From NCBI GenBank assembly GCA_964563965.1, contig CAZLZI010000002.1, forward strand, positions 1 to 36,825: a stretch of DNA of 36,825 nucleotides, in the 5' to 3' direction. Source of the stretch: an uncultured Candidatus Saccharibacteria bacterium. Lineage in GTDB: Bacteria; Patescibacteriota; WWE3; UBA101185; UBA10185. The translations under genes and the position numbers were made by a program. The number at the start of each line of letters is the position of its first letter. Positions within the stretch are counted from its first letter, which is position 1. This document shows, in pieces, positions 1,955 through 36,825 of the stretch. The notes under the pieces were generated by a model. That model saw nothing but the letters and a program-made list of their open reading frames with translations. It was not told the origin of the DNA and made no database searches.

Positions 1955-4900
1955 ATGAAAACAAAAATTAGTTATTTGCGCACAAGAAGATCTAAATCAC
2001 TTATATTAAAGATTCTAATTTTACTACTGCCAATCGTGGGCGTAGGGATAATACTACACTCGGGTATCGTTAAAACCTTTGCAGAGGGGGATGTTGTCAC
2101 TACTAATTGGGATTTATCAACTCCGGGTAATTATGTGACATCGGACGATAATCTTGTTGAGATTACAGGTGGTATTGCCCAACATAAGGTACAAAACTAT
2201 GCTGATGATGCAAGTACTGGACTTCTACTCCATTTAGATGAATCTAGTGGTGCTGTTGCAGAAGACAGCTCGTCTCATGGCACAGATGGAGATGTTACCA
2301 ATGGTACATTTGGTACAGGTATTTTGAATAATGGACTGGCCTTTGGCGGAGTAAATTCCAAGCTTGAAGTAAATGATGCCTCGGGAGTTTCCCTTGGGCA
2401 GAATCATACGATAGAACTTTGGTCTAAATTAGATGAAACATTTTCTGCAACTGCTAAAGAAGCAAAATATGGCTTAGTTGATAAAGGAGATTACTCACTC
2501 TATTTCGATGATGAAACCGGCAAAATTACCTACGAATTAGCTAATTCAGCAGCAACTGAATGGACACAAGAAGCAGGAAACGACATAAATAGTAGCTGGG
2601 ATTTAAACGGCAAGTTAGCTGTGCATGATACTGTAGCTGTAGGCTCAGTGATTTACACTGCACTTGGTAATGCAGTAGGTGATGCAGAGGTTTGGAGCTA
2701 TACAGCAGGAACTTGGGCACAGATTGGGGGAGATGGCTTAAACTCAGGCTGGGATGCAGCTACTTATGAAAGTGTCTTTGCTTTAGCATCTAGCGGTACT
2801 GTGTTATATGCAGGTCTAGGTACAACAGCTGGGGATGGAGAGGTATGGAGTTGTGTAATTGCTGCAGGGTGTAATGACTGGACTAAAATCGGTGGGGATG
2901 GGATCAATACCAGTTGGGCAATAAATACTTTTGAAGGTGTGTATTCTATGACTTATTTTGGTGGTAACCTCTACGCTGGTGTTGGAAACACTGCAGGAGA
3001 TGCCGAGGTATGGCGTTGGAACGGCAGCTCTTGGACAAAAATTGGTGGTGATAGCTTACTTTCAGGTTGGACTACAAACTATGATTTGGTTTATGCAATG
3101 ACTAATGACGGTACAAATCTCTATGTTGGCCTTGGACTTACAGCCACTGAATCAGAGGTGTGGATGTGGAATGGTACCGTGTGGTCTAAAATAGGTGGCG
3201 ATGGGGTGAGCTCTAGCTGGAACACAGATTATGAATATGTTCTATCCCTTGATTATTTTGGTACAAGTCTTTATGTAGGACTAGGTAGTTCAGCAGGAGA
3301 TGCCGAGGTTTGGAGACTTTCATCTGGCACCTGGACCAAGATTGGCGGGGATGATTTAAATTCTGGCTGGACAACGGTTGGGGCATATGAAGGTGTCTAT
3401 TCACTTACTAATGATGGAACTAACCTATATGCAGGTCTAGGTGCTTCAGCAGGTGACAATGAGGTTTGGATGTGGAACGGTTCAGTTTGGGCTAAACTTG
3501 GTGGCGATGGTCTAAATTCCAGTTTTACAAACACACATACTTACGTCTCTGATCTTTATTTTGCAAATAACACTTTATATACGGGACTTACTACTACTAA
3601 TAATTCTGCAACCATGTGGACATATACAGAAGGAGCTTGGGCACTTATTGCAGGCAATTATGTAAAAAAAAGCTGGGGTTACTATAACTTACAATCAATC
3701 GAAGTTATGCAAGTATATGGGGATAATTTATATGCAGGCAGTGGATATACTGTTGCTGGAAATGCTTTAGTTTGGAAATTTAATGGCACTTCTTGGGAAC
3801 TCATCGGAGGACAAGGCTTAAATAATAGCTGGGGTATAGGTACATACGAGATTGTTTATTCTATGAAAACATTTGGGAATGAACTGTATGTTGGCTTGGG
3901 AAGTACAGCTGGTGATGCAGAAGTGTGGAAATGGAATGGCTCTAGTTGGATTCAAGTAGGAGGTGATAGTTTTAACTCCGGTTGGACAACTGGGTACGAA
4001 CAAGTAACTTCCCTTGCGGCTGATGAGAATTATCTCTACGCGGGACTTGGCAACAGTGCAAATGATGCAGAAGTATGGAGATGGAATGGTACAGCATGGG
4101 GTAAGATCGGTGGAGATAATTCTAATTCAGGTTGGGCTACTAATTATGAAATTGTCCAAGCTATGGTGCCGTTCAATGGTTATTTGTATGCGGCTTTGGG
4201 AAATACGGCAGGGGATTCTGAAGTATGGAGATGGAATGGTACAGTCTGGGCAAAGATTGGTGGAGATACTGCAGGTTCAAGCTGGGGAGCTACTATTGAA
4301 ATTGTAGATTCACTAATCGTTTATAAAGGTGAACTATTTGCATCCTTAGGCAACAGCACAGGAGATGCGCAAGTTTGGAAATATAATGGATCAACATGGG
4401 CACAAGTTGGTGGCGATGATGTAAATAGCAGTTGGACTAGCGGTACATTTGAACGAGTTCGAGCCATGGCAGTTTATAACGGTAAACTGTATGCTGGCCT
4501 TGGTACTACAGCTGGGGAAGGTGAAGTGTGGCGATATGATGGCTCTAGTTGGGAGAAGGTTGGGGGAGATACGATAAACTCAAGCTGGGCAAACAACGTC
4601 ATTGAAAGTGTCCATTCACTTACAGTTTATAATGGAAAACTGTATGCAGGGCTTGGCGAAACTGCCAACGTTGATCCTGCTGTCTGGTCCTATGGAGGAA
4701 ATAGTATCCTACGCTCGACTGCCTCTTCTTTTAATACTGATTGGAGACATATAGCAGCCACTTATAACGGATCGTCAATGAAACTTTACATAAATGGCAC
4801 TCTTGATACTCAAACGAGTGCCTCAGTCTCAGTCCCTGATTCATCGCTTGATGTATTAATTGGCTCGACCTATGGTAGTCCCTCACACGGTAAACCTTCA

Positions 4901-7837
4901 GGTTACTTTACAGGTAGTTTAGACGAAGTACGGCTAAGTTCAACTCCACGAACCTCTTTTAATACAACTGCCTATTCTGCTTCCCCTCAAACAGTAACCC
5001 CGCTTACTGCTGTTTATACAGAAGACATTGCTAACTATTCAGCCTTTAATGCTACAGAAGTATTAAATGGGGGCACAGTAACTTACAGACTGTCTAATGA
5101 TGGGGGGAGTACATGGAAGTATTGGAACGGTTCAGCTTGGGCTACGTCAGCGTCTCTTGCCAATGCGAATACTTATACCGATATACACACTAATATTGAG
5201 GCTTTTCCTGTAACTACAGGAGGATTTAAGTGGCAAGCTGTCTTAACTGGTGATGGTACGCAGCAAGTTCAGCTTGATCTTGTAAGTCTGTCAGCCATCG
5301 AAGATATAGAAAATCCGAATCCGCCATCGTTAATTGTTGCGCTTAATCAAGCTGGTGGTGGAACTTCACTTACCTCGACTGAATGGTATGCATATTCGTC
5401 TCCTTCTTTTACTTGGTCAGGAGCAACTGATGTTGGTGATGCAGGTATTGCAGGCTATTATGTATATTTTGGCACTGATAGCAGTGCAGTACCCTCAACA
5501 GCCGGTAATTTTCAAGCGGGAACAACATATACAGCAACTAGTCTAGTCAATGGCAGTACCTACTATTTAAGAATACAAACAAAAGATAATGCTCAAAATG
5601 TAAGCACACCGTATAGTGCCTTTACGTATAAATTTGATAACTCAGTACCCACTAACCCTAGTACTATTACTGTAACTCCTACTGGGTATGCAGCCACAAA
5701 TTCATTTACATTTGCTTGGCCTACTTCGGGAGATGGTATAGCTACAGATTCAGGTTCTGGTATTGCTGGTTATCAATATAAGACAGGGGCATCAAGCGGT
5801 GTGTTAAGTGAATGGTCCTCGGTCACCACAGCAAATTCAATTACAATCGATTCAGCAGCCTATTCTAGTGAAGTAAACACATTCTATTTACGAGTTATCG
5901 ATGAGGCAGGAAACACCGCGGCAACACCATTGTCTGTTAATTATTATTATGCTGGGGATGGTCCTTCAGTGCCTAGATTTGTAACTGCTACCCCATCATC
6001 AAGTACGACAAATTCATTTGCCTTTTCTTGGCAAGCACCAGAGAATTTTTCAGGCAATGCATCAGATTTAACATACTGTTATTCAATAAATAGTTTGCCT
6101 TCAGAGTCGACATGCACTTATACAAGTGCGGGTGCTACGTCATTATCTGCCAGTGCTTTTGCAACGCAAGTTGGGCTTAATACTTTTTATGTAGTTGCAA
6201 AAAACAGTGATGATGTGGGTGGCTCTATAAACTACGGTGCTTATGGTTCAGCTACCTTTACTGCAAATACCTCAGCACCAGGGATTCCGGTTGGGCTTGA
6301 GATATCAGATGTCTCAATTAAATCTCAAGAGGCATGGCGACTAGCACTGTCATGGGCAGTGCCTGAAGATATAGGCTCCGGTGTTTCTTCCTATAAAGTT
6401 TATCGGGCTGATGAAGATACAGAGTCAGAATATACTTATCTTGCATCGGTAAACTCCAGTACTGCATCAACTGGAGCTGCCTATATAGACACAGAACTAT
6501 TACAGCAAAATTATTATTATAAGATTAAAGCTTGTGATAGTGTCTCTAACTGTGGAGCTTTTACCTCATCAGTAGTTTTACTCCCAACTGGTAAATTTAC
6601 AGAAGCCGCTGCCATAGAAGATGATCCGAAAGTCACAAGTATTACAACTAAACAAGCAACCGTTTCATGGTCGACAAATCGAACAAGTGATTCTAAAGTT
6701 CAATACGGAAAGAGTTCAGATGACTATTTCGACGCTGAACCATCAAACTCTACGCAAGTTACTGCCCACGAAATCGTGCTTACCAATTTAAGCCCTGGGA
6801 CCAAGTATTATGCTGTTGCCAAGTGGACTGATGAGGATGGTAATACCGGACTTAGTGATGAGTTTACATTCACTACACAACCAGCCCCCACAGTTACTGA
6901 TCCATCAGTTAAACAGGCTGGTATCACCACTCTTACACTTCAATACACGGTTAAAGATGCCTCAAAGGTAAAAATTTACTATGGTAAGACTTCTGCGTTT
7001 GGTGCATCGCTTGAGCTATCTACTTCAACAAAATCTACAACTTACGCAACTACACTTGATGACTTAGAAGATGGTACTAAATATTATTACAAAATAAATA
7101 CCTTTGATAGCGAAGGTGAAGAATACGAAGGAAGTATATTATCCTTTGAAACTTTACCAAGGCCAAAGATAGCCGATGTTAAAATACAGCAAATTAAAAA
7201 TTCAGCCCAACCCTCAGTTCTTGTTTCGTGGACGACTAATACTGAAGTTTCTTCTATCGTAACTTATGCCCCGACATCAAATCCTGCGGATACCAAAGAT
7301 GAGGTTAATGTAGCACTTATCAAAGGTCTCCACCGAGTTCTCATTAAAAGTCTTTTGCCTGAAACACCATATACTATAATTGTAAAAGGTAGAGATAAAG
7401 CTGGTAATGAGGCTCAAAGTGATCCGCAGAAGATTACAACTGCAACTGATACTCGTCCGGCTGAACTTACTGATTTAAATGTTGAGCCAAGTATTGCTTT
7501 ATCTCAAAATAAAGAAGCTACCGCTCAACTGGTAGTAAGCTGGAATACAGATGAACCTGCAACATCACAGGTTGAGTTTGGAGAGGGGACTGGGTCTACC
7601 TATTCACAAAAATCTCAAGAAGATAAAAATTTAACCTTTAACCATGTTGTAGTTATCTCAAATCTTAATACCTCTAAAGTTTACCATTTGCGAGCTAGCT
7701 CAAAAGATAAAGCTGGAAATACTGCTACATCCGTTGATACAGTTACTATAACACCAAAAGCATCGGAGAATGCACTTAACCTTGTAATTACTAATCTTGG
7801 CGAAGTCTTTGGATTTCTAAAAGGAGTTGAATACTAA
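1955..7837 (+). CDS. Giant (1960 aa) membrane-anchored surface protein: LamG-like, 14 Kelch-like beta-propeller blades, Asp-box module, about 8 Fn3-like domains
   Basis: N-terminal hydrophobic anchor at aa 15-35. LamG (Laminin_G_3)-like N-half at aa ~88-200. 14 units of ~50 aa (LYAGLGxTAGDAEVWRWNGxxWxKIGGDxxNSxW) at aa ~205-915. LamG C-half signature WRHIAATYNGSSMKLYINGT...FTGSLDEVRLS at aa ~926-996. Asp-box LSNDGGSTW at aa 1046-1054. Repeated Fn3-like modules at aa ~1120-1935, the last four resembling purple-acid-phosphatase N-terminal type Fn3 (SWSTNxxSDSKVQYG). Confidence 0.95.
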   Translation: MKTKISYLRTRRSKSLILKILILLLPIVGVGIILHSGIVKTFAEGDVVTTNWDLSTPGNYVTSDDNLVEITGGIAQHKVQNYADDASTGLLLHLDESSGAVAEDSSSHGTDGDVTNGTFGTGILNNGLAFGGVNSKLEVNDASGVSLGQNHTIELWSKLDETFSATAKEAKYGLVDKGDYSLYFDDETGKITYELANSAATEWTQEAGNDINSSWDLNGKLAVHDTVAVGSVIYTALGNAVGDAEVWSYTAGTWAQIGGDGLNSGWDAATYESVFALASSGTVLYAGLGTTAGDGEVWSCVIAAGCNDWTKIGGDGINTSWAINTFEGVYSMTYFGGNLYAGVGNTAGDAEVWRWNGSSWTKIGGDSLLSGWTTNYDLVYAMTNDGTNLYVGLGLTATESEVWMWNGTVWSKIGGDGVSSSWNTDYEYVLSLDYFGTSLYVGLGSSAGDAEVWRLSSGTWTKIGGDDLNSGWTTVGAYEGVYSLTNDGTNLYAGLGASAGDNEVWMWNGSVWAKLGGDGLNSSFTNTHTYVSDLYFANNTLYTGLTTTNNSATMWTYTEGAWALIAGNYVKKSWGYYNLQSIEVMQVYGDNLYAGSGYTVAGNALVWKFNGTSWELIGGQGLNNSWGIGTYEIVYSMKTFGNELYVGLGSTAGDAEVWKWNGSSWIQVGGDSFNSGWTTGYEQVTSLAADENYLYAGLGNSANDAEVWRWNGTAWGKIGGDNSNSGWATNYEIVQAMVPFNGYLYAALGNTAGDSEVWRWNGTVWAKIGGDTAGSSWGATIEIVDSLIVYKGELFASLGNSTGDAQVWKYNGSTWAQVGGDDVNSSWTSGTFERVRAMAVYNGKLYAGLGTTAGEGEVWRYDGSSWEKVGGDTINSSWANNVIESVHSLTVYNGKLYAGLGETANVDPAVWSYGGNSILRSTASSFNTDWRHIAATYNGSSMKLYINGTLDTQTSASVSVPDSSLDVLIGSTYGSPSHGKPSGYFTGSLDEVRLSSTPRTSFNTTAYSASPQTVTPLTAVYTEDIANYSAFNATEVLNGGTVTYRLSNDGGSTWKYWNGSAWATSASLANANTYTDIHTNIEAFPVTTGGFKWQAVLTGDGTQQVQLDLVSLSAIEDIENPNPPSLIVALNQAGGGTSLTSTEWYAYSSPSFTWSGATDVGDAGIAGYYVYFGTDSSAVPSTAGNFQAGTTYTATSLVNGSTYYLRIQTKDNAQNVSTPYSAFTYKFDNSVPTNPSTITVTPTGYAATNSFTFAWPTSGDGIATDSGSGIAGYQYKTGASSGVLSEWSSVTTANSITIDSAAYSSEVNTFYLRVIDEAGNTAATPLSVNYYYAGDGPSVPRFVTATPSSSTTNSFAFSWQAPENFSGNASDLTYCYSINSLPSESTCTYTSAGATSLSASAFATQVGLNTFYVVAKNSDDVGGSINYGAYGSATFTANTSAPGIPVGLEISDVSIKSQEAWRLALSWAVPEDIGSGVSSYKVYRADEDTESEYTYLASVNSSTASTGAAYIDTELLQQNYYYKIKACDSVSNCGAFTSSVVLLPTGKFTEAAAIEDDPKVTSITTKQATVSWSTNRTSDSKVQYGKSSDDYFDAEPSNSTQVTAHEIVLTNLSPGTKYYAVAKWTDEDGNTGLSDEFTFTTQPAPTVTDPSVKQAGITTLTLQYTVKDASKVKIYYGKTSAFGASLELSTSTKSTTYATTLDDLEDGTKYYYKINTFDSEGEEYEGSILSFETLPRPKIADVKIQQIKNSAQPSVLVSWTTNTEVSSIVTYAPTSNPADTKDEVNVALIKGLHRVLIKSLLPETPYTIIVKGRDKAGNEAQSDPQKITTATDTRPAELTDLNVEPSIALSQNKEATAQLVVSWNTDEPATSQVEFGEGTGSTYSQKSQEDKNLTFNHVVVISNLNTSKVYHLRASSKDKAGNTATSVDTVTITPKASENALNLVITNLGEVFGFLKGVEY
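2567..4699 (+). repeat. Intragenic tandem array of 14 diverged ~150-153-nt units encoding Kelch-like blades
   Basis: The conserved Trp of the (A)EVW motif falls at aa 247, 298, 353, 403, 453, 505, 555, 607, 658, 708, 758, 808, 859 and 911, a spacing of 50-55 aa. An identical 25-mer occurs at 4070-4094 and 4220-4244, offset by exactly 150 nt. Confidence 0.9.
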
Positions 7838-31442: not shown

Positions 31443-31517
31443 GCGAGAGTGGCTCAGTGGTAGAGTGTCTCCTTGCCAAGGAGAAGGTCGCGGGTTCGAA
31501 TCCCGTCTCTCGCTCCA
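31443..31517 (+). tRNA. tRNA-Gly (anticodon GCC), CCA encoded
   Basis: Acceptor GCGAGAG/CTCTCGC, anticodon stem TCTCC/GGAGA with loop TTGCCAA, T arm GCGGG-TTCGAAT-CCCGT. Confidence 0.9.
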
Positions 31518-31526
31518 GATGTTTGA

Positions 31527-31683
31527 AGTTCCGACCATTCCGTCTCCCTAGGCTTTTGCTTGCAGTTCCGACTGACTCGTTTGGGTTACCATAAATTATC
31601 ATAGTTTTACTGCTAATTTTTGACTATATTTTTGCTATTTCCAGACTCGTCTGACCCTAGGTTAGGTGCAAAGTTCCGACCAT
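31527..31683 (+). repeat. Short interspersed direct repeats downstream of tRNA-Gly that resemble a tRNA T-arm/3' end
   Basis: AGTTCCGACCAT at 31527-31538 and 31672-31683. AGTTCCGAC at 31564-31572. CCCTAGG at 31546-31552 and 31655-31661. GACTCGT at 31574-31580 and 31644-31650. Confidence 0.7.
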
Positions 31684-31772
31684 AACATATAGCTTGTAGT
31701 GGCTTGATATTTATAGACAACAAAAAACACTTCAGATACATAAAACAAATGCTTTGACGTATAATGCCTTAT

Positions 31773-32258
31773 ATGAAAGGTGTAATTTTAGAAAATAGAA
31801 ATAAAGGATTTCGTGCAGGTGCTGTCATTGTAAAAGATGAGAAAATCCTGTTGATGCACCAGTATCTCGGTCCGCGAAAGCATGAAGGCAAAGGTGCAGA
31901 GGATTTTTATACCCTACCAGGCGGTAGTTGGGAGGTTGGAGAAACAATAGAACAAACCTGCAAAAGAGAAATTAAAGAGGAATGTGGAATAGATGTTGCT
32001 GTGGGCAGACTGATTTTTTACGTTGATACAGAATCAAGACTTGCCTTCTATTTTATTGGTGAGACTTCGGAAACCGAAATTTCTTTAGGGGGTCCTGAAA
32101 AAGAAAGGATGTCTGACCACGAAAAATACGCTGTTGAGTGGATAGAGCTCGAAAGAATAAAGGATTTAACCTTTATTCCAGCACCTGCTAAGGATGCCGT
32201 GCTAAAATATCTGGAAAATCTTAATCAACCTGCTTTTTTCTTAACTACCAATAAGTAG
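31773..32258 (+). CDS. NUDIX hydrolase
   Basis: Complete Nudix box GGSWEVGETIEQTCKREIKEECGI. I prefer ATG 31773 (7 nt after TATAAT 31760-31765), because ATG 31764 lies inside the -10 box. Confidence 0.88.
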   Translation: MKGVILENRNKGFRAGAVIVKDEKILLMHQYLGPRKHEGKGAEDFYTLPGGSWEVGETIEQTCKREIKEECGIDVAVGRLIFYVDTESRLAFYFIGETSETEISLGGPEKERMSDHEKYAVEWIELERIKDLTFIPAPAKDAVLKYLENLNQPAFFLTTNK

Positions 32259-32267
32259 CTTTTATTT

Positions 32268-32882
32268 ATGATTATTCGTTATCCAGTAAAAGATCACACA
32301 ATAAGCCAACCATTCGGCAGGGATGCCTCGAATGACCCTATTTATAAGGAGTTTTATGCCACCTTTGATTATAAACACTGTGGCGTGGATTTTCCGCTTC
32401 CCGTAGGTACTGAGGTTTTTGCCTCTTTTACTGGAGTAGTTGTTAGATGTGAAAATCATATAGGTATGGGCAATGTTGTAGGTGTAAGAAACGGAAACAT
32501 TGTAGCTTTGTACGCACATTTGTCCAAAATATTTGTACAACTTGGAGAGATAGTCAAGGAGGGTGTTTTGATTGGATACTCTGGAGATACTGGAGATGCT
32601 TGCCCTACTCCGCATTTACATTTTGAACTTAGAGATATAACAAAACCAACTCTACGGGAAATGGTTTTTGAACCGCCTTTTGATAGAGAAGCAACCCAGT
32701 ATGTTAGTACATTTAAGTATATTGTTAATAATAAAAATACTAAAAAAACATTGAAGTGTCTTTCTAAGCTTTATTTTGGAAATGAGAGCAACTGGGAGGT
32801 AATAAAAGTGTGTAATGGCCTAAGTTTTGATGAGTATTACATATTGGAAGATTCCTCAACAGTAATAATTCCAAATTTTTAG
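32268..32882 (+). CDS. M23 (LytM-type) metallopeptidase with a C-terminal LysM-like segment and no signal peptide
   Basis: HxxxD (HCGVD) and HxH (PHLHFEL) zinc motifs. The C-terminal TLKCLSKLYFGNESNWEVIKVCNGLS...STVIIP fits the LysM pattern. Confidence 0.82.
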   Translation: MIIRYPVKDHTISQPFGRDASNDPIYKEFYATFDYKHCGVDFPLPVGTEVFASFTGVVVRCENHIGMGNVVGVRNGNIVALYAHLSKIFVQLGEIVKEGVLIGYSGDTGDACPTPHLHFELRDITKPTLREMVFEPPFDREATQYVSTFKYIVNNKNTKKTLKCLSKLYFGNESNWEVIKVCNGLSFDEYYILEDSSTVIIPNF

Positions 32883-32889
32883 ACTATAA

Positions 32890-33279
32890 TTAATTTAATT
32901 CTTTTCCTGTGCACAAATGAAAATGCATCTGGTTAACTTCTTGTCTATCTCCACCATTAACCAAAAGCGTATATTCTTTCCAGTTAAGTTGTTCGACAAT
33001 GATTTTTACCGCTTTGAACACTTCGTTTACAAAGACCCTATCTGAATCCTGAAGTGAAATAATATTTTTTATCTTCTTTTTGGGAACAATTAATACATGT
33101 TGCTCCCAGAATGGTTTAGGATGCCAAAATGCAATCACTTTGTCGTTTTCATATACCCGATTCACGGGTAGTGCGCCACTTAAAGATTCGAAAGTAGTAC
33201 CAACGAGGTAATCAGCAATTGGCGTTTTTGCCATTGAGAAAAGAAATTTACCAAGTTTCATATGAAGTAATTTTATCAT
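32890..33279 (-). CDS. HIT-family nucleotide hydrolase/transferase-like protein
   Basis: Histidine-triad region VNQMHFHLC (QxHxH, first His replaced by Gln). Size and upstream region are typical of HIT proteins. Confidence 0.7.
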   Translation of the reverse strand: MIKLLHMKLGKFLFSMAKTPIADYLVGTTFESLSGALPVNRVYENDKVIAFWHPKPFWEQHVLIVPKKKIKNIISLQDSDRVFVNEVFKAVKIIVEQLNWKEYTLLVNGGDRQEVNQMHFHLCTGKELN

Positions 33280-33299
33280 AAGGGTGAATTCTAAAATCG

Positions 33300-34628
33300 T
33301 CAGTGATTTATGTTTAAATATAACTTCATATTCTTAAGATAAAGAGGTTGCTTTATAAGTGTAAATATTTCCCTTCGTTCTTGATTGGAACCGAATTTTA
33401 AAATGTGTTTTGCAAAAGTTTTAATATCAACTTCCTTTAATCTTCGTTTTTCCTCCTCGTTTTGGGAATCCTCATTCAAAATAGCTTTGAACTTTGCAAA
33501 CCTAGTATATTCCTCTTGTAATATTTTATTAAATTGCTCCTTATCTATTTCTACTTCATTAATAATTTCAACAAGTTGGGTTACAAGATCGTCTTCTCTT
33601 ATATAAGGTTCTTTACAATCAAAATCCTTATCTTTTCCTCTTAAACAGTGATAATAAACGTACTTTACTCTATCCCCATTCTTAAGTTGCTTTGTTCTTT
33701 CTTCACCTGTTAGGTGTGAACCGCACGTGGCGCACCTTATCGTTCGTGTAAAAGGAAAATCATGTTTCATGGAATTTGGTTTATCTGAAGTAGCTAACTT
33801 CTCCTGCACCTTGTTAAATAACCCTCTAGTTATTAACGGCTCGTGTTTACCTTTATACCAAGTCCCACTTCCGACTGGATATTCAAAATCACCACAGTAA
33901 AAAGGGTTTTTGAGTATTTCATAAAGTCTTCCAAGCGCCAACTTCTTACCTCGTCTTGATAAAAAGTTTTTCTCTTTGTCTAAATATCTTTTAACAGAAC
34001 GCCCGCTAAACCCACAATATGCAACCAATTCAAACATCTCTCTTAAGATGGGCGCTTTTACTTCATCTAAAACAAGGTCATTAACTCCATTAATAGTACG
34101 ATTATGATAACCAAGCGGTGACATACATGGTCTCCAACCTCGTTCACATTTTGCTCTAATACCCCGTTTAACATTTTCACCTCTATGGTCATTTTCAAGT
34201 TTTGCCTGAGAGCAAAGTATCATAAGCAAAAACTTTTCGTTTGGATTATTGGAAAATGTTTGTGAATAAGTTTTTATATGAAGTAACTGTTTACGATCCA
34301 TTAAATCAACCAAGGCACCTAAGTCTCCCGCATTTCTACTTAACCTGTCTGGTGCCCATGTAAGGATTGCATTAAACAAGCCTCTATCTATGTCGGCTAT
34401 TAACTGTTTGAAAACTGGTCTTGCTCCCGAGAGTTTTGCTGAATGGCTTTCTTGCCTTACCTCTAGAATATTTAGTTTTTCCTTTGTTGCCTGATCCATC
34501 ATTTCTTTGATTTGGGAATCGATCGACATCGCTTGCCGTTCGTCACTTTCTGTCGATTTTCTGGCGTAAAGGCAGTATCTAAGTTGTTGGTTCTCTTGTT
34601 CTGTCATCTTACACAATGGATGACGCAT
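33300..34628 (-). CDS. Large serine recombinase (resolvase catalytic domain, recombinase domain, zinc ribbon, coiled coil)
   Basis: YCLYARKSTESDERQAMSIDSQ (catalytic Ser in RKST) and DRLSRN. Recombinase domain with GWRPCMSPLGY. Zinc-ribbon-like CATCGSHLTGE...YYHC. Lys/Glu-rich C-terminal coiled coil. An alternative start is ATG 34607. Confidence 0.9.
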   Translation of the reverse strand: MRHPLCKMTEQENQQLRYCLYARKSTESDERQAMSIDSQIKEMMDQATKEKLNILEVRQESHSAKLSGARPVFKQLIADIDRGLFNAILTWAPDRLSRNAGDLGALVDLMDRKQLLHIKTYSQTFSNNPNEKFLLMILCSQAKLENDHRGENVKRGIRAKCERGWRPCMSPLGYHNRTINGVNDLVLDEVKAPILREMFELVAYCGFSGRSVKRYLDKEKNFLSRRGKKLALGRLYEILKNPFYCGDFEYPVGSGTWYKGKHEPLITRGLFNKVQEKLATSDKPNSMKHDFPFTRTIRCATCGSHLTGEERTKQLKNGDRVKYVYYHCLRGKDKDFDCKEPYIREDDLVTQLVEIINEVEIDKEQFNKILQEEYTRFAKFKAILNEDSQNEEEKRRLKEVDIKTFAKHILKFGSNQERREIFTLIKQPLYLKNMKLYLNINH

Positions 34629-34633
34629 AAACG

Positions 34634-34661
34634 TTGTCTAGTCAACTCTTGGTGATATAAT
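34634..34661 (+). promoter_or_regulatory. Promoter TTGTCT-16nt-TGaTATAAT, 6 nt upstream of GTG 34668
   Basis: TTGTCT at 34634-34639. Extended -10 tgatataat at 34653-34661. It lies in the 39-nt divergent region shared with the recombinase gene. Confidence 0.5.
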
Positions 34662-34667
34662 GCCTTT

Positions 34668-35591
34668 GTGCCGCTATTCGATCTAAATAATCACAAAGTA
34701 ATAGAAATTCCTGAAATTGATTTTTCACTAGAGAAAGAACTTCAAACACTAGTAGAAAATAATATTGAAAAGATTTTTAATCTTAAATTTGTTAGAACTG
34801 AACTGCAAATAAACGATTTAAGAATTGATAGCCTTGCGTTTGACGAGGAAAATAACTCTTTTGTAATTATTGAGTATAAAAGAGACAAGAATTTTAGTGT
34901 AATTGACCAAGGTATGTCATATTTAGCACTTATGCTTAATCACAAAGCTGATTTCGTTCTTGCATCTAATGAGTCAGGAAATCCTGTAAAAATAAGCGAT
35001 ATTGATTGGACACAATCGAAGGTATTGTTTTTAGCGCAAAGCTTTACAAAATATCAACGAAACGCTGTAAACTTTCGCGATTTACCAATTGAATTATGGG
35101 AAGTTAGGAAATACAAAAACGGCACCTTATTTCTTAATCAAATAAAGTCTGACCCTAACAGCGAATCTTTTCACAAAGTAGTAGGTCAAAATGAGGTACT
35201 TAAAAAAATAAGCTCAGAAGTTAAGCTATATCAAGTAGAAGATCATCTTAATAACATCCCAGAAAACGTTAAAAACCTATATCAAGAACTTTCAGAAAAG
35301 CTATTAGATTTGGACGATAGGCTTGAAATAAATTCAAGAAAAAAATATATTGGGTTTATGATTGACGGTAAAAATACTGTTGCAATACTAGTTTATAAAA
35401 ACCATCTTACGTTGGCATTTGGTAGAACAAGACCTGAAGATCTTACTGATATAGAACACAAATTAAAATACAGACCTTCAAGTATGAAAAATCAAAATCA
35501 GCATATTTCCGATTTAAAGATTGAGAACACCGAGGACATAAACTATGGTGTACAGCTTGCACGCGAGCTTCTGGAAAAACATTTCAAATAA
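34668..35591 (+). CDS. NucS/RecB-like PD-(D/E)xK nuclease domain protein with a C-terminal DUF5655-like domain
   Basis: D54...E69-x-K71...Q81xxxY85 (RIDSLAF...VIIEYKRD...DQGMSY). The C-terminal KKYIGFMIDGKNTVAILVYKNHLTLAF...ISDLKIENTEDINYGVQLARELLEKH matches my memory of the DUF5655 pattern. GTG start. Confidence 0.75.
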   Translation: MPLFDLNNHKVIEIPEIDFSLEKELQTLVENNIEKIFNLKFVRTELQINDLRIDSLAFDEENNSFVIIEYKRDKNFSVIDQGMSYLALMLNHKADFVLASNESGNPVKISDIDWTQSKVLFLAQSFTKYQRNAVNFRDLPIELWEVRKYKNGTLFLNQIKSDPNSESFHKVVGQNEVLKKISSEVKLYQVEDHLNNIPENVKNLYQELSEKLLDLDDRLEINSRKKYIGFMIDGKNTVAILVYKNHLTLAFGRTRPEDLTDIEHKLKYRPSSMKNQNQHISDLKIENTEDINYGVQLARELLEKHFK

Positions 35592-35601
35592 CTGCGGTAC
35601 T

Positions 35602-36684
35602 CTATGATTCTAGTGTCTCTTTAGTTGCCTTAATAATCTCATCAACCTGGCCTGACCAATCCTCAATATCGTGCATCTTAAATTGCTTACCAGTTAGAGT
35701 ATCCACTAGATTGGTATGTTCTTTGAGTTTCTCCAGGAATATATCTCGATATTTTATCGCGGTCTCTGTGCTATCAAGCCAGCCGTAGTTAAATACAAGC
35801 TTTCCATCAGTTAAAACACTGTACATTGATTTTGGTGAAACTTTGTAAGATACGGCACTAAAAGAACCATCTTTTATTCCTGTTCCCCATTTTATTTGAT
35901 CGAAGTTACCCTTAGTAAATTCGTACAACTTTTTAACTACAGATATGTAACTCACATCCACTTTCTTTTGAAGATCTTCAAAAAACATTTCTTCATTCCA
36001 TGTTTTTCTTTGTGATGACGATCTGGATGTTGCAACATCAATGTCTTTTTTGATTTCATTTCCAAAAAGCTTCGGGATCATAAGTTCGTGATCTTTAAAT
36101 TTGTAATACTCTAGTTCTACAGCAAACACATCGAATTGACTGTTTTTGTTAATAAATAATATTAGATCTTTCAGTCTATCTTCTAAGTGATCCATTAGTA
36201 CCACAAATCTGAATATCCCTTTGTTTAAATTCTGCTTAATGTTTTCAATTAGATCCTCAACCTGTGACTCTTCCTCAAATCCGAAAAACTCAGTAATTTT
36301 TTCATTCATGCTTTTGCCAAACTTCTTGCTTGCTCCGTTTTCTAGTTTTGTAAGAAAGTCAGAAAAGTCGTTGTAATATGACCATATTGAAGCACCGTAA
36401 TCCAGTGCCTGTGCCACAACAGTCCGTTTATCTGGATTCTTATATAGTTTTGTTTCTACTATGTAGATATTTCCGTTTATATCTATACCGATCGCATCAA
36501 TAGGTCCGCTATTAGTGGGAAATTCACGCATTAATATTAAGACCTTAATATCTTCATCAATCTCATACATTGGTAGTGTTTCAGGGTTTTCATAAATGTA
36601 TTCTTGCAATTCCTTTTCATCAGAAAAATCCTGACGGTCTAGCTTTTGTGCATTCTTACCTTTTTCAGTAATTATTACTGTCAT
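35602..36684 (-). CDS. NucS/RecB-like PD-(D/E)xK nuclease domain protein (homolog of the 34668-35591 N-domain) with a distinct C-terminal domain
   Basis: D63...E77-x-K79...Q92xxxY96 (PIDAIGID...IYIVETKLY...AQALDY). The N-terminal motif DFSDEKELQEYIYEN matches DFSLEKELQTLVENN of the neighbouring gene. GGAGG Shine-Dalgarno sequence 4 nt before the ATG. Confidence 0.75.
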   Translation of the reverse strand: MTVIITEKGKNAQKLDRQDFSDEKELQEYIYENPETLPMYEIDEDIKVLILMREFPTNSGPIDAIGIDINGNIYIVETKLYKNPDKRTVVAQALDYGASIWSYYNDFSDFLTKLENGASKKFGKSMNEKITEFFGFEEESQVEDLIENIKQNLNKGIFRFVVLMDHLEDRLKDLILFINKNSQFDVFAVELEYYKFKDHELMIPKLFGNEIKKDIDVATSRSSSQRKTWNEEMFFEDLQKKVDVSYISVVKKLYEFTKGNFDQIKWGTGIKDGSFSAVSYKVSPKSMYSVLTDGKLVFNYGWLDSTETAIKYRDIFLEKLKEHTNLVDTLTGKQFKMHDIEDWSGQVDEIIKATKETLES

Positions 36685-36825
36685 ATAACCTCCAAACTTA
36701 TTAACTTTTTACTTGTGTGGATTGATGACGCAAAGTGCCTATTAATGCAAGAGTAATCTATATTTTTAACTGCTTCGCAAGCTTGTATGTTTATGCTAGG
36801 ACTGTAATACATAAAAAGGGACTAC

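Follow-up and report, generated by a model that had tools for sequence, protein, structure and literature searches.

Neighbouring NucS-like nuclease genes in a Saccharibacteria island: probably separate candidate defence cassettes in one cargo slot

The window analysed here is the whole of positions 1 to 36,825 (36,825 nucleotides, nt) of contig CAZLZI010000002.1 from an uncultured Candidatus Saccharibacteria bacterium (assembly GCA_964563965.1). Near its end lie two convergent genes, A and B, beside the gene for a large serine recombinase. The product of each has a NucS-like PD-(D/E)xK nuclease domain at its N-terminus. Comparison with related islands suggests that A and B are independently acquired single-gene candidate defence cassettes, stacked in one cargo slot of a mobile island, and we give this reading a probability of about 0.6. 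A sequence-only reading of the same DNA had proposed that the two genes form one module. Near-orthologous islands carry B without A, and across wider samples the two families rarely occur close together and are not adjacent when they do, so that A and B are better treated as separate single-gene candidates than as a unit.

Results

The genes and sites concerned lie as follows (genes from a scan of open reading frames, ORFs).

33300..34628, minus strand: large serine recombinase ORF with Resolvase, Recombinase and Zn_ribbon_recom domains (Pfam)
34634..34661, plus strand: promoter-like site for A (TTGTCT, 16 nt, TG-n-TATAAT)
34646..35601: single-gene insertion of about 0.95 kb, gene A with its promoter-like site and nothing else, absent from near-orthologous islands
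34668..35591, plus strand: gene A, 307 amino acids, GTG start
35592..35601: spacer of 10 nt between the stop codons of the convergent genes
35602..36684, minus strand: gene B, 360 amino acids

The islands most similar to the window contain B and lack A. In locus L195 B is 95% identical and the recombinase gene follows directly downstream after 44 nt. The recombinase is also directly next to B in L002-L004, where B is 81% identical, and the B-recombinase distance in L002 and L195 is 38-44 nt. In L001 (B 84% identical) the contig has no A, and after B comes the beginning of an ORF on the same strand whose DNA resembles that of the recombinase. Loci L196-L198, with B 92% identical, have another gene of 166 amino acids in the exact place of A and in the same opposite orientation. 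The slot between B and the recombinase is therefore seen in three states: empty, with A, or with an M41-peptidase-like gene. This last gene (11069-11569 in L196, present also in L197 and L198) matches Peptidase_M41 (FtsH-like, HExxH) and is an alternative cargo.

Comparison by blastn shows that homology to the window ends at the stop codon of B and restarts at the promoter of the recombinase. The intervening segment of about 0.95 kb consists of gene A and 22 nt upstream of it that carry the promoter-like site, and no meaningful direct or inverted repeats flank it. Judged by this break in synteny, and by the 64% identity of its nearest relative, A is a recent single-gene insertion with its own promoter-like site, and B is an older resident of the lineage.

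The promoter-like site of A has the top score (10/12, tied) in a scan of positions 33200-36825 and is the sole one with a TG extension. Only 6 nt separate its end from the GTG start, and the mRNA of A would accordingly have little or no leader; the N-terminus read from this start (MPLF...) is that of the homologues. The ORF scan bears out the 10-nt convergent gap described earlier, and the site scan found no terminator-like hairpin in these 10 nt. The distance of 39 nt between the recombinase gene and A, also described earlier, holds for the recombinase ORF as called (ATG at 34628). The alignments with homologous recombinases all begin at residue 8, and in L002 the upstream position is not an ATG. 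Translation therefore probably starts at M8 (ATG at 34607), which makes the spacer to A 60 nt. The recombinase matches the phrog_95 integrase family in PHROGs (E 4e-66).

The co-occurrence of the two families was counted in two samples: the best 80 loci (±10 kb) from 265 GTDB species genomes with a relative of B, and 80 metagenome loci with a homologue of A, 33 of them usable because they have at least 5 kb of flank. A homologue of A was found within 10 kb of B in one of the 80 species-level loci (L044, 5.5 kb away), and B within 10 kb of A in one of the 33 usable A loci (L124, 3.9 kb away); in neither are the genes adjacent. Among IMG/VR contigs B occurs in 11 and A in two, and both together in none. 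The order in L044, as in L008, is A, type III Mod, Res, B. These two loci were considered as independent arrangements of A, restriction-modification (RM) genes and B, and this was rejected because they are orthologous islands, with protein identities of 82-86% for A, B and Res and 70% for Mod. In L124 the order is BREX genes, A, a TPR protein, a Schlafen-like protein, two more ORFs and B. The three independent co-localisations differ in the intervening genes, and the window lineage alone has A and B adjacent; at least four sequencing runs yielded this identical pair.

Both are large families, with thousands of clusters, that are patchy across phyla and archaea, and each is widespread alone. 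The 144 immediate neighbours of B belong to 131 Pfam families, DNA methylases foremost, with no conserved partner among them. The sequence-only reading had itself named a lack of co-occurrence between the families as the observation that would speak against a module, and a lack of co-occurrence is what the locus counts give.

Within the proteins the following regions can be delimited.

A, about residues 1-165: nuclease domain (D54, E69, K71, Q81, Y85)
A, residues 190-292 (35235-35543): C-terminal YdhG/YjbR-like DUF5655 domain
B, residues 1-207 (36684..36064, minus strand): nuclease domain with a helical insert (D63, E77, K79, Q92, Y96)
B, residues 210-225: disordered linker
B, residues 226-360 (36009..35605, minus strand): C-terminal domain

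The full D...ExK...QxxxY signature had been assigned to exactly these residues from the sequence, and alignments confirm it. The five residues of A are invariant in 23 A-family proteins and the five of B in 25 B-family proteins (relatives at 46-84% identity to the query). When 120 sequences are aligned, conservation of Q81 and Q92 is 90% or higher, and the other eight catalytic residues are invariant. The N-terminal motif that the two proteins share had also been pointed out, and by its scores it is true homology rather than chance: BLASTP gives 27% identity over 89 amino acids (E 1e-4) and profile-profile comparison aligns residues 1-95 of A with 1-106 of B (E 1.8e-4). The motif corresponds to the first helix of the NucS_C-type nuclease fold. 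Foldseek searches with AlphaFold2 models place both N-terminal domains on NucS/EndoMS (2vld, 5gke; probability 1.0), and both proteins are predicted to be nucleases.

The C-terminal halves differ, as had been observed, and hhalign finds no relation between them (probability 9%). That of A is a DUF5655 domain (PF18899; 31.3 bits in Pfam against a cut-off of 24), which Foldseek relates to YdhG (2oc6) and YjbR (2fki). The AlphaFold2 model of A has a pLDDT of 90, and its N-terminal part matches NucS (5gke/2vld) with a Foldseek E of 3e-4; a family-profile sequence search of the PDB with A gave no match. At full length A matches PADLOC PDC-S18 (PDLC04945, E 7.5e-98), with residues 1-300 on positions 1-299 of the 302 in the model, and is by this alignment a member of the PDC-S18/DUF5655 family. 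Homologues with 35% identity lie within hsdM-hsdS-[A]-hsdR operons on Acinetobacter plasmids, and the metagenome neighbours of A belong mostly to type I RM, type III RM and BREX (BrxL) families. In the window A is outside any RM operon and the nearest RM system, of type III, is about 5 kb off.

One of the plasmids, pNDM_SCLZS30 of Acinetobacter towneri (L174, 1399-9970), has a type I RM operon with three embedded nuclease candidates, in the order HNH gene, PDC-S18 and PDC-S26 between hsdS and hsdR. A protein beside A on this plasmid, annotated as 'PD-(D/E)XK nuclease family protein', was considered as a homologue of B and rejected; it is PDC-S26.

For the C-terminal half of B there is no match in Pfam, and a family-profile search of the PDB with B gave a weak NucS match only (2vld, E 0.009). 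Its AlphaFold2 model has a pLDDT of 80. PADLOC gives a partial match to PDC-S11 (PDLC04916, E 4e-19; also PDLC04915), and B appears to be a distant relative of PDC-S11, not a demonstrated member, in a large family that has no Pfam model. The PADLOC and Foldseek runs proposed in the sequence-only reading returned a NucS fold for both proteins and a full-length PADLOC match for A only. That reading could match the genes to no named system; this no longer holds, given the full-length match of A and the partial match of B.

Searches with the C-terminal domain of B (phmmer, 1.8 billion representative proteins) gave 307 matches, mostly with the architecture of B. Elsewhere the domain is fused to GmrSD_N, to Ser/Thr kinases with DUF4268, to DUF4268 alone or to an AAA ATPase (for example P0295, P0329, P0343, P0366 and P0397). 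It has the look of a mobile sensor or adaptor domain of defence proteins that has not been described before. The islands with B also hold Shedu, DruA, NurA/HerA and type I or type ISP RM genes. In an Acidobacteria metagenome-assembled genome (L172, 10001-11080) a homologue of B stands alone between fadB-like (3HCDH/ECH) and thiolase genes, and its position inside this housekeeping operon suggests that B needs no partner and no cognate methylase.

The phage database holds three small unannotated records that match A, and none of its 50,697 phage records matches B, which is also rare in IMG/VR; A and B are thus not typical phage genes. The sole strong viral structural match to the model of B is Gp54 of Bacillus phage G (BFVD G3MBC4; E 7e-9), a full-length alignment with 14% identity in which the two proteins share their overall fold.

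The recombinase is the terminal gene of a cassette that also comprises a ParB_N-N6/N4 methylase (ParB-MTase), a TerS-like protein and TerL. The other cassette genes lie past the end of the window and can be seen in L188 (1-15197), where the A and B proteins are identical to those of the window. The order there is PDDEXK_1, type III Res and type III Mod (all minus), ParB-MTase, TerS-like, TerL, B (plus), A (minus), recombinase, HIT (plus), M23 and NUDIX (minus). PHROGs confirm TerS and TerL (phrog_38, E 7e-77). The four-gene cassette is present in about 35 of the Patescibacteria and DPANN loci that were fetched, among them L002, L005, a subset of L011-L090, L171, L176-L180 and L195-L198. An S24 repressor-like peptidase and an HNH gene are often found upstream of it. 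A full prophage around TerS and TerL was considered and rejected, since the genes seen beside the cassette include none for a portal, capsid or tail.

The cassette is flanked by type I, type III and type ISP RM, Shedu, DruA and NurA/HerA genes, and the position of A and B relative to it varies. At least 11 loci have nothing at the junction between TerL and the recombinase, and at least 15 have B there, on one strand or the other; six loci lack TerL and have B between the recombinase and TerS. A abuts TerS in L139, as B does in L040 and L047. A is convergent beside the recombinase in L005, L006 and L162 and is linked to a recombinase also in L114 and L116. A close homologue of the recombinase lies within 10 kb in 29 of the 80 B loci, usually together with ParB-MTase, TerS and TerL. 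The variable position and orientation suggest that A and B are cargo, not functional parts of the cassette. A literature search for this cassette in Patescibacteria returned nothing relevant. In Patescibacteria the cassette may act as a satellite-like carrier of defence genes.

On the other side of the recombinase lies a tRNA gene with a conserved flank.

31443..31682, plus strand: tRNA-Gly (31443-31517) and about 165 nt of flank

The flank of about 165 nt is kept beside the same island in relatives, with an overlap of only 45 nt in L196, and the tRNA-Gly region is likely the border or attachment region of the island. The genes between this flank and the recombinase vary: HIT, an M23 peptidase and NUDIX in the window, an ORF of 135 amino acids in L002 and DUF3644 in L196. 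The stretch from the tRNA gene onwards (31443-33279) looks like a second variable region or island border. Far from these genes, an ORF of 1960 amino acids occupies positions 1955-7837 of the window, with raised GC and a strong positive GC skew there (2-5 kb). The window is an entire contig, and its LeuRS falls in one cluster, at 90% identity or more, with a protein from a Candidatus Parcubacteria metagenome-assembled genome.

Discussion

The nearest named counterparts of A and B are found among the PDCs of Payne et al. (bioRxiv 10.1101/2024.01.29.577857), 145 candidates picked out by their position inside BREX, DISARM or type I RM systems ('guilt-by-embedding'). PDC-S18 resembles A from end to end of its model, in its DUF5655 domain and in having relatives embedded in type I RM operons; A of the window differs in its place, a cargo slot with B on one side and a serine recombinase on the other. 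The likeness of PDC-S11 to B is confined to the nuclease half.

Other systems share the general design. END-Mag, a NucS-like PD-DExK-iEndoIII protein, has been shown by experiment to restrict phages with modified guanine and has no cognate methylase (PMC12191111). Like A and B it is one polypeptide that begins with a NucS-like nuclease and ends with a sensor domain, putative in A and B. The sensor of END is, however, an inactivated EndoIII/Ogg1 domain, in contrast to DUF5655 in A and a novel domain in B, and neither Pfam nor Foldseek matched an HhH-glycosylase domain in A or B. Shedu (SduA) is likewise a single protein with a NucS-related PD-(D/E)xK nuclease and a variable sensor domain, and Shedu genes share islands with B, but the domain order is opposite to that of A and B. 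SduA_C/DUF4263 gave no match to A or B in Pfam or PADLOC, and the Foldseek probability against SduA (8ps5) is 0.2. NucS/EndoMS has the same catalytic fold and the same D...ExK...QxxxY signature. In NucS (2vld, 5gke), a core repair gene product that binds the sliding clamp, a DNA-binding and dimerisation domain precedes the nuclease, whereas A and B have the nuclease first, unrelated partner domains and the character of accessory genes. Neither A nor B is a NucS, Shedu or END nuclease.

By analogy with modular modification-dependent nucleases, each protein would most likely act in defence on its own, as a restriction-like nuclease. DNA would be cut by the N-terminal NucS-type domain, and the C-terminal domain would pick the target, for instance modified or otherwise foreign DNA. 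The selector would be the YdhG/YjbR-like 'double-wing' DUF5655 in A and the novel domain in B. The two genes would be transcribed independently in the variable slot between TerL and the serine recombinase, in a cassette within a defence island next to tRNA-Gly of a Parcubacteria/Patescibacteria genome, and the stacking of two such genes would widen the coverage. The earlier suggestion that the genes travel with the recombinase and have a defence flavour survives to this extent: both families occur in defence islands and mobile elements, and both recur by close homologues of the recombinase. A bolder version is more tentative and, in our view, doubtful as a whole. In it A and B would be restriction nucleases that sense modification or structure through two uncharacterised sensor domains, and could replace each other as cargo of the cassette, itself a satellite-like element not described before that would move defence genes about in bacteria of the Candidate Phyla Radiation (CPR); in this lineage the two would be stacked to widen the range of targets.

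Several observations weigh against the interpretation as independent defence cargo. B is linked to the cassette in 29 of 80 loci, which might point to a part in the biology of the element itself. Loci were sampled through A or B, which biases the sample against cassettes that lack both. The PDCs are put forward explicitly as candidates (bioRxiv 10.1101/2024.01.29.577857). In the match to PDLC04916, residues 9-241 of B align to positions 11-217 of 358, leaving the C-terminal domain uncovered, and Foldseek finds no counterpart in the PDB for the fold of this domain. Finally, co-localisation of A and B within 10 kb appears far above the expectation for two rare unlinked genes, and A and B may occasionally cooperate.

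It is also conceivable, though rather unlikely, that B, or A where it replaces B, serves the cassette itself, as an accessory excision or packaging nuclease, as a weapon against rival elements or as the nuclease of an addiction pair in which the ParB-fused methylase is the partner. Besides the frequent proximity of the recombinase, B is divergent from ParB-MTase in L011, L021, L035, L041 and L043 and takes the place of TerL in the six loci mentioned above. A part of the machinery would hardly fit the free variation of B in position and orientation within the cassette. Nor would it fit the roughly 50 of the 80 loci with no homologue of the recombinase or TerL in the fetched flank (at most 10 kb, shorter on short contigs), which include Bacteroidales, Acidobacteria and the one in a fatty-acid operon. 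B is moreover absent from the phage records and rare in IMG/VR, and the cassette exists without B (L005, L162).

Free-standing homing-type endonucleases, selfish genes that spread by cutting empty sites, would explain the clean single-gene insertions, of A between B and the recombinase and of B between fadB and thiolase in L172. This is improbable for A and B. The non-nuclease M41-like gene occupies the same slot, which makes the variability a property of the slot; the neighbourhoods lean strongly towards RM and BREX genes; there is no intron or intein context; and effectors other than nucleases also carry the C-terminal domain of B.

PD-(D/E)xK enzymes are often dimeric. A true two-component system, either a heteromeric nuclease with two sensors or a layered pair in which one protein controls the other, would agree with this habit, with the homology of the nuclease domains and with the tight convergent juxtaposition. 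The identical pair in the sequencing runs and the three independent lineages with both genes within 10 kb point the same way. Against it, the nearest orthologues of B are without A or have another gene in its place, and in the single co-occurrences among 80 and 33 loci the two genes are not adjacent and their arrangement is not the same. A and B run towards each other from separate promoters, and each family is common without the other. Comparative genomics thus largely refutes the two-component arrangement, which we consider very improbable.

A housekeeping role as NucS/EndoMS-type repair nucleases, suggested by the resemblance in sequence and fold to the C-terminal nuclease domain of NucS, is refuted by the failed NucS membership (NCBIfam equivalog scores of 18.1 bits for A and 26 bits for B against cut-offs of 216 and 252, with only NucS_C aligning, the NucS N-terminal domain missing and the domain order reversed) and by context, namely the patchy distribution, the mobile and defence surroundings and the presence/absence variation among near-identical islands.

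Conclusions

A and B, which we favour as separate defence candidates, are new as members or relatives of catalogued candidate families, and the three states of the slot between B and the recombinase offer a natural comparison for the contribution of each cargo gene. The cargo slot in a compact CPR cassette may be a more interesting lead than the gene pair. Little is known of the mobile elements of Patescibacteria, and the cassette may matter as a carrier of defence genes in this group.

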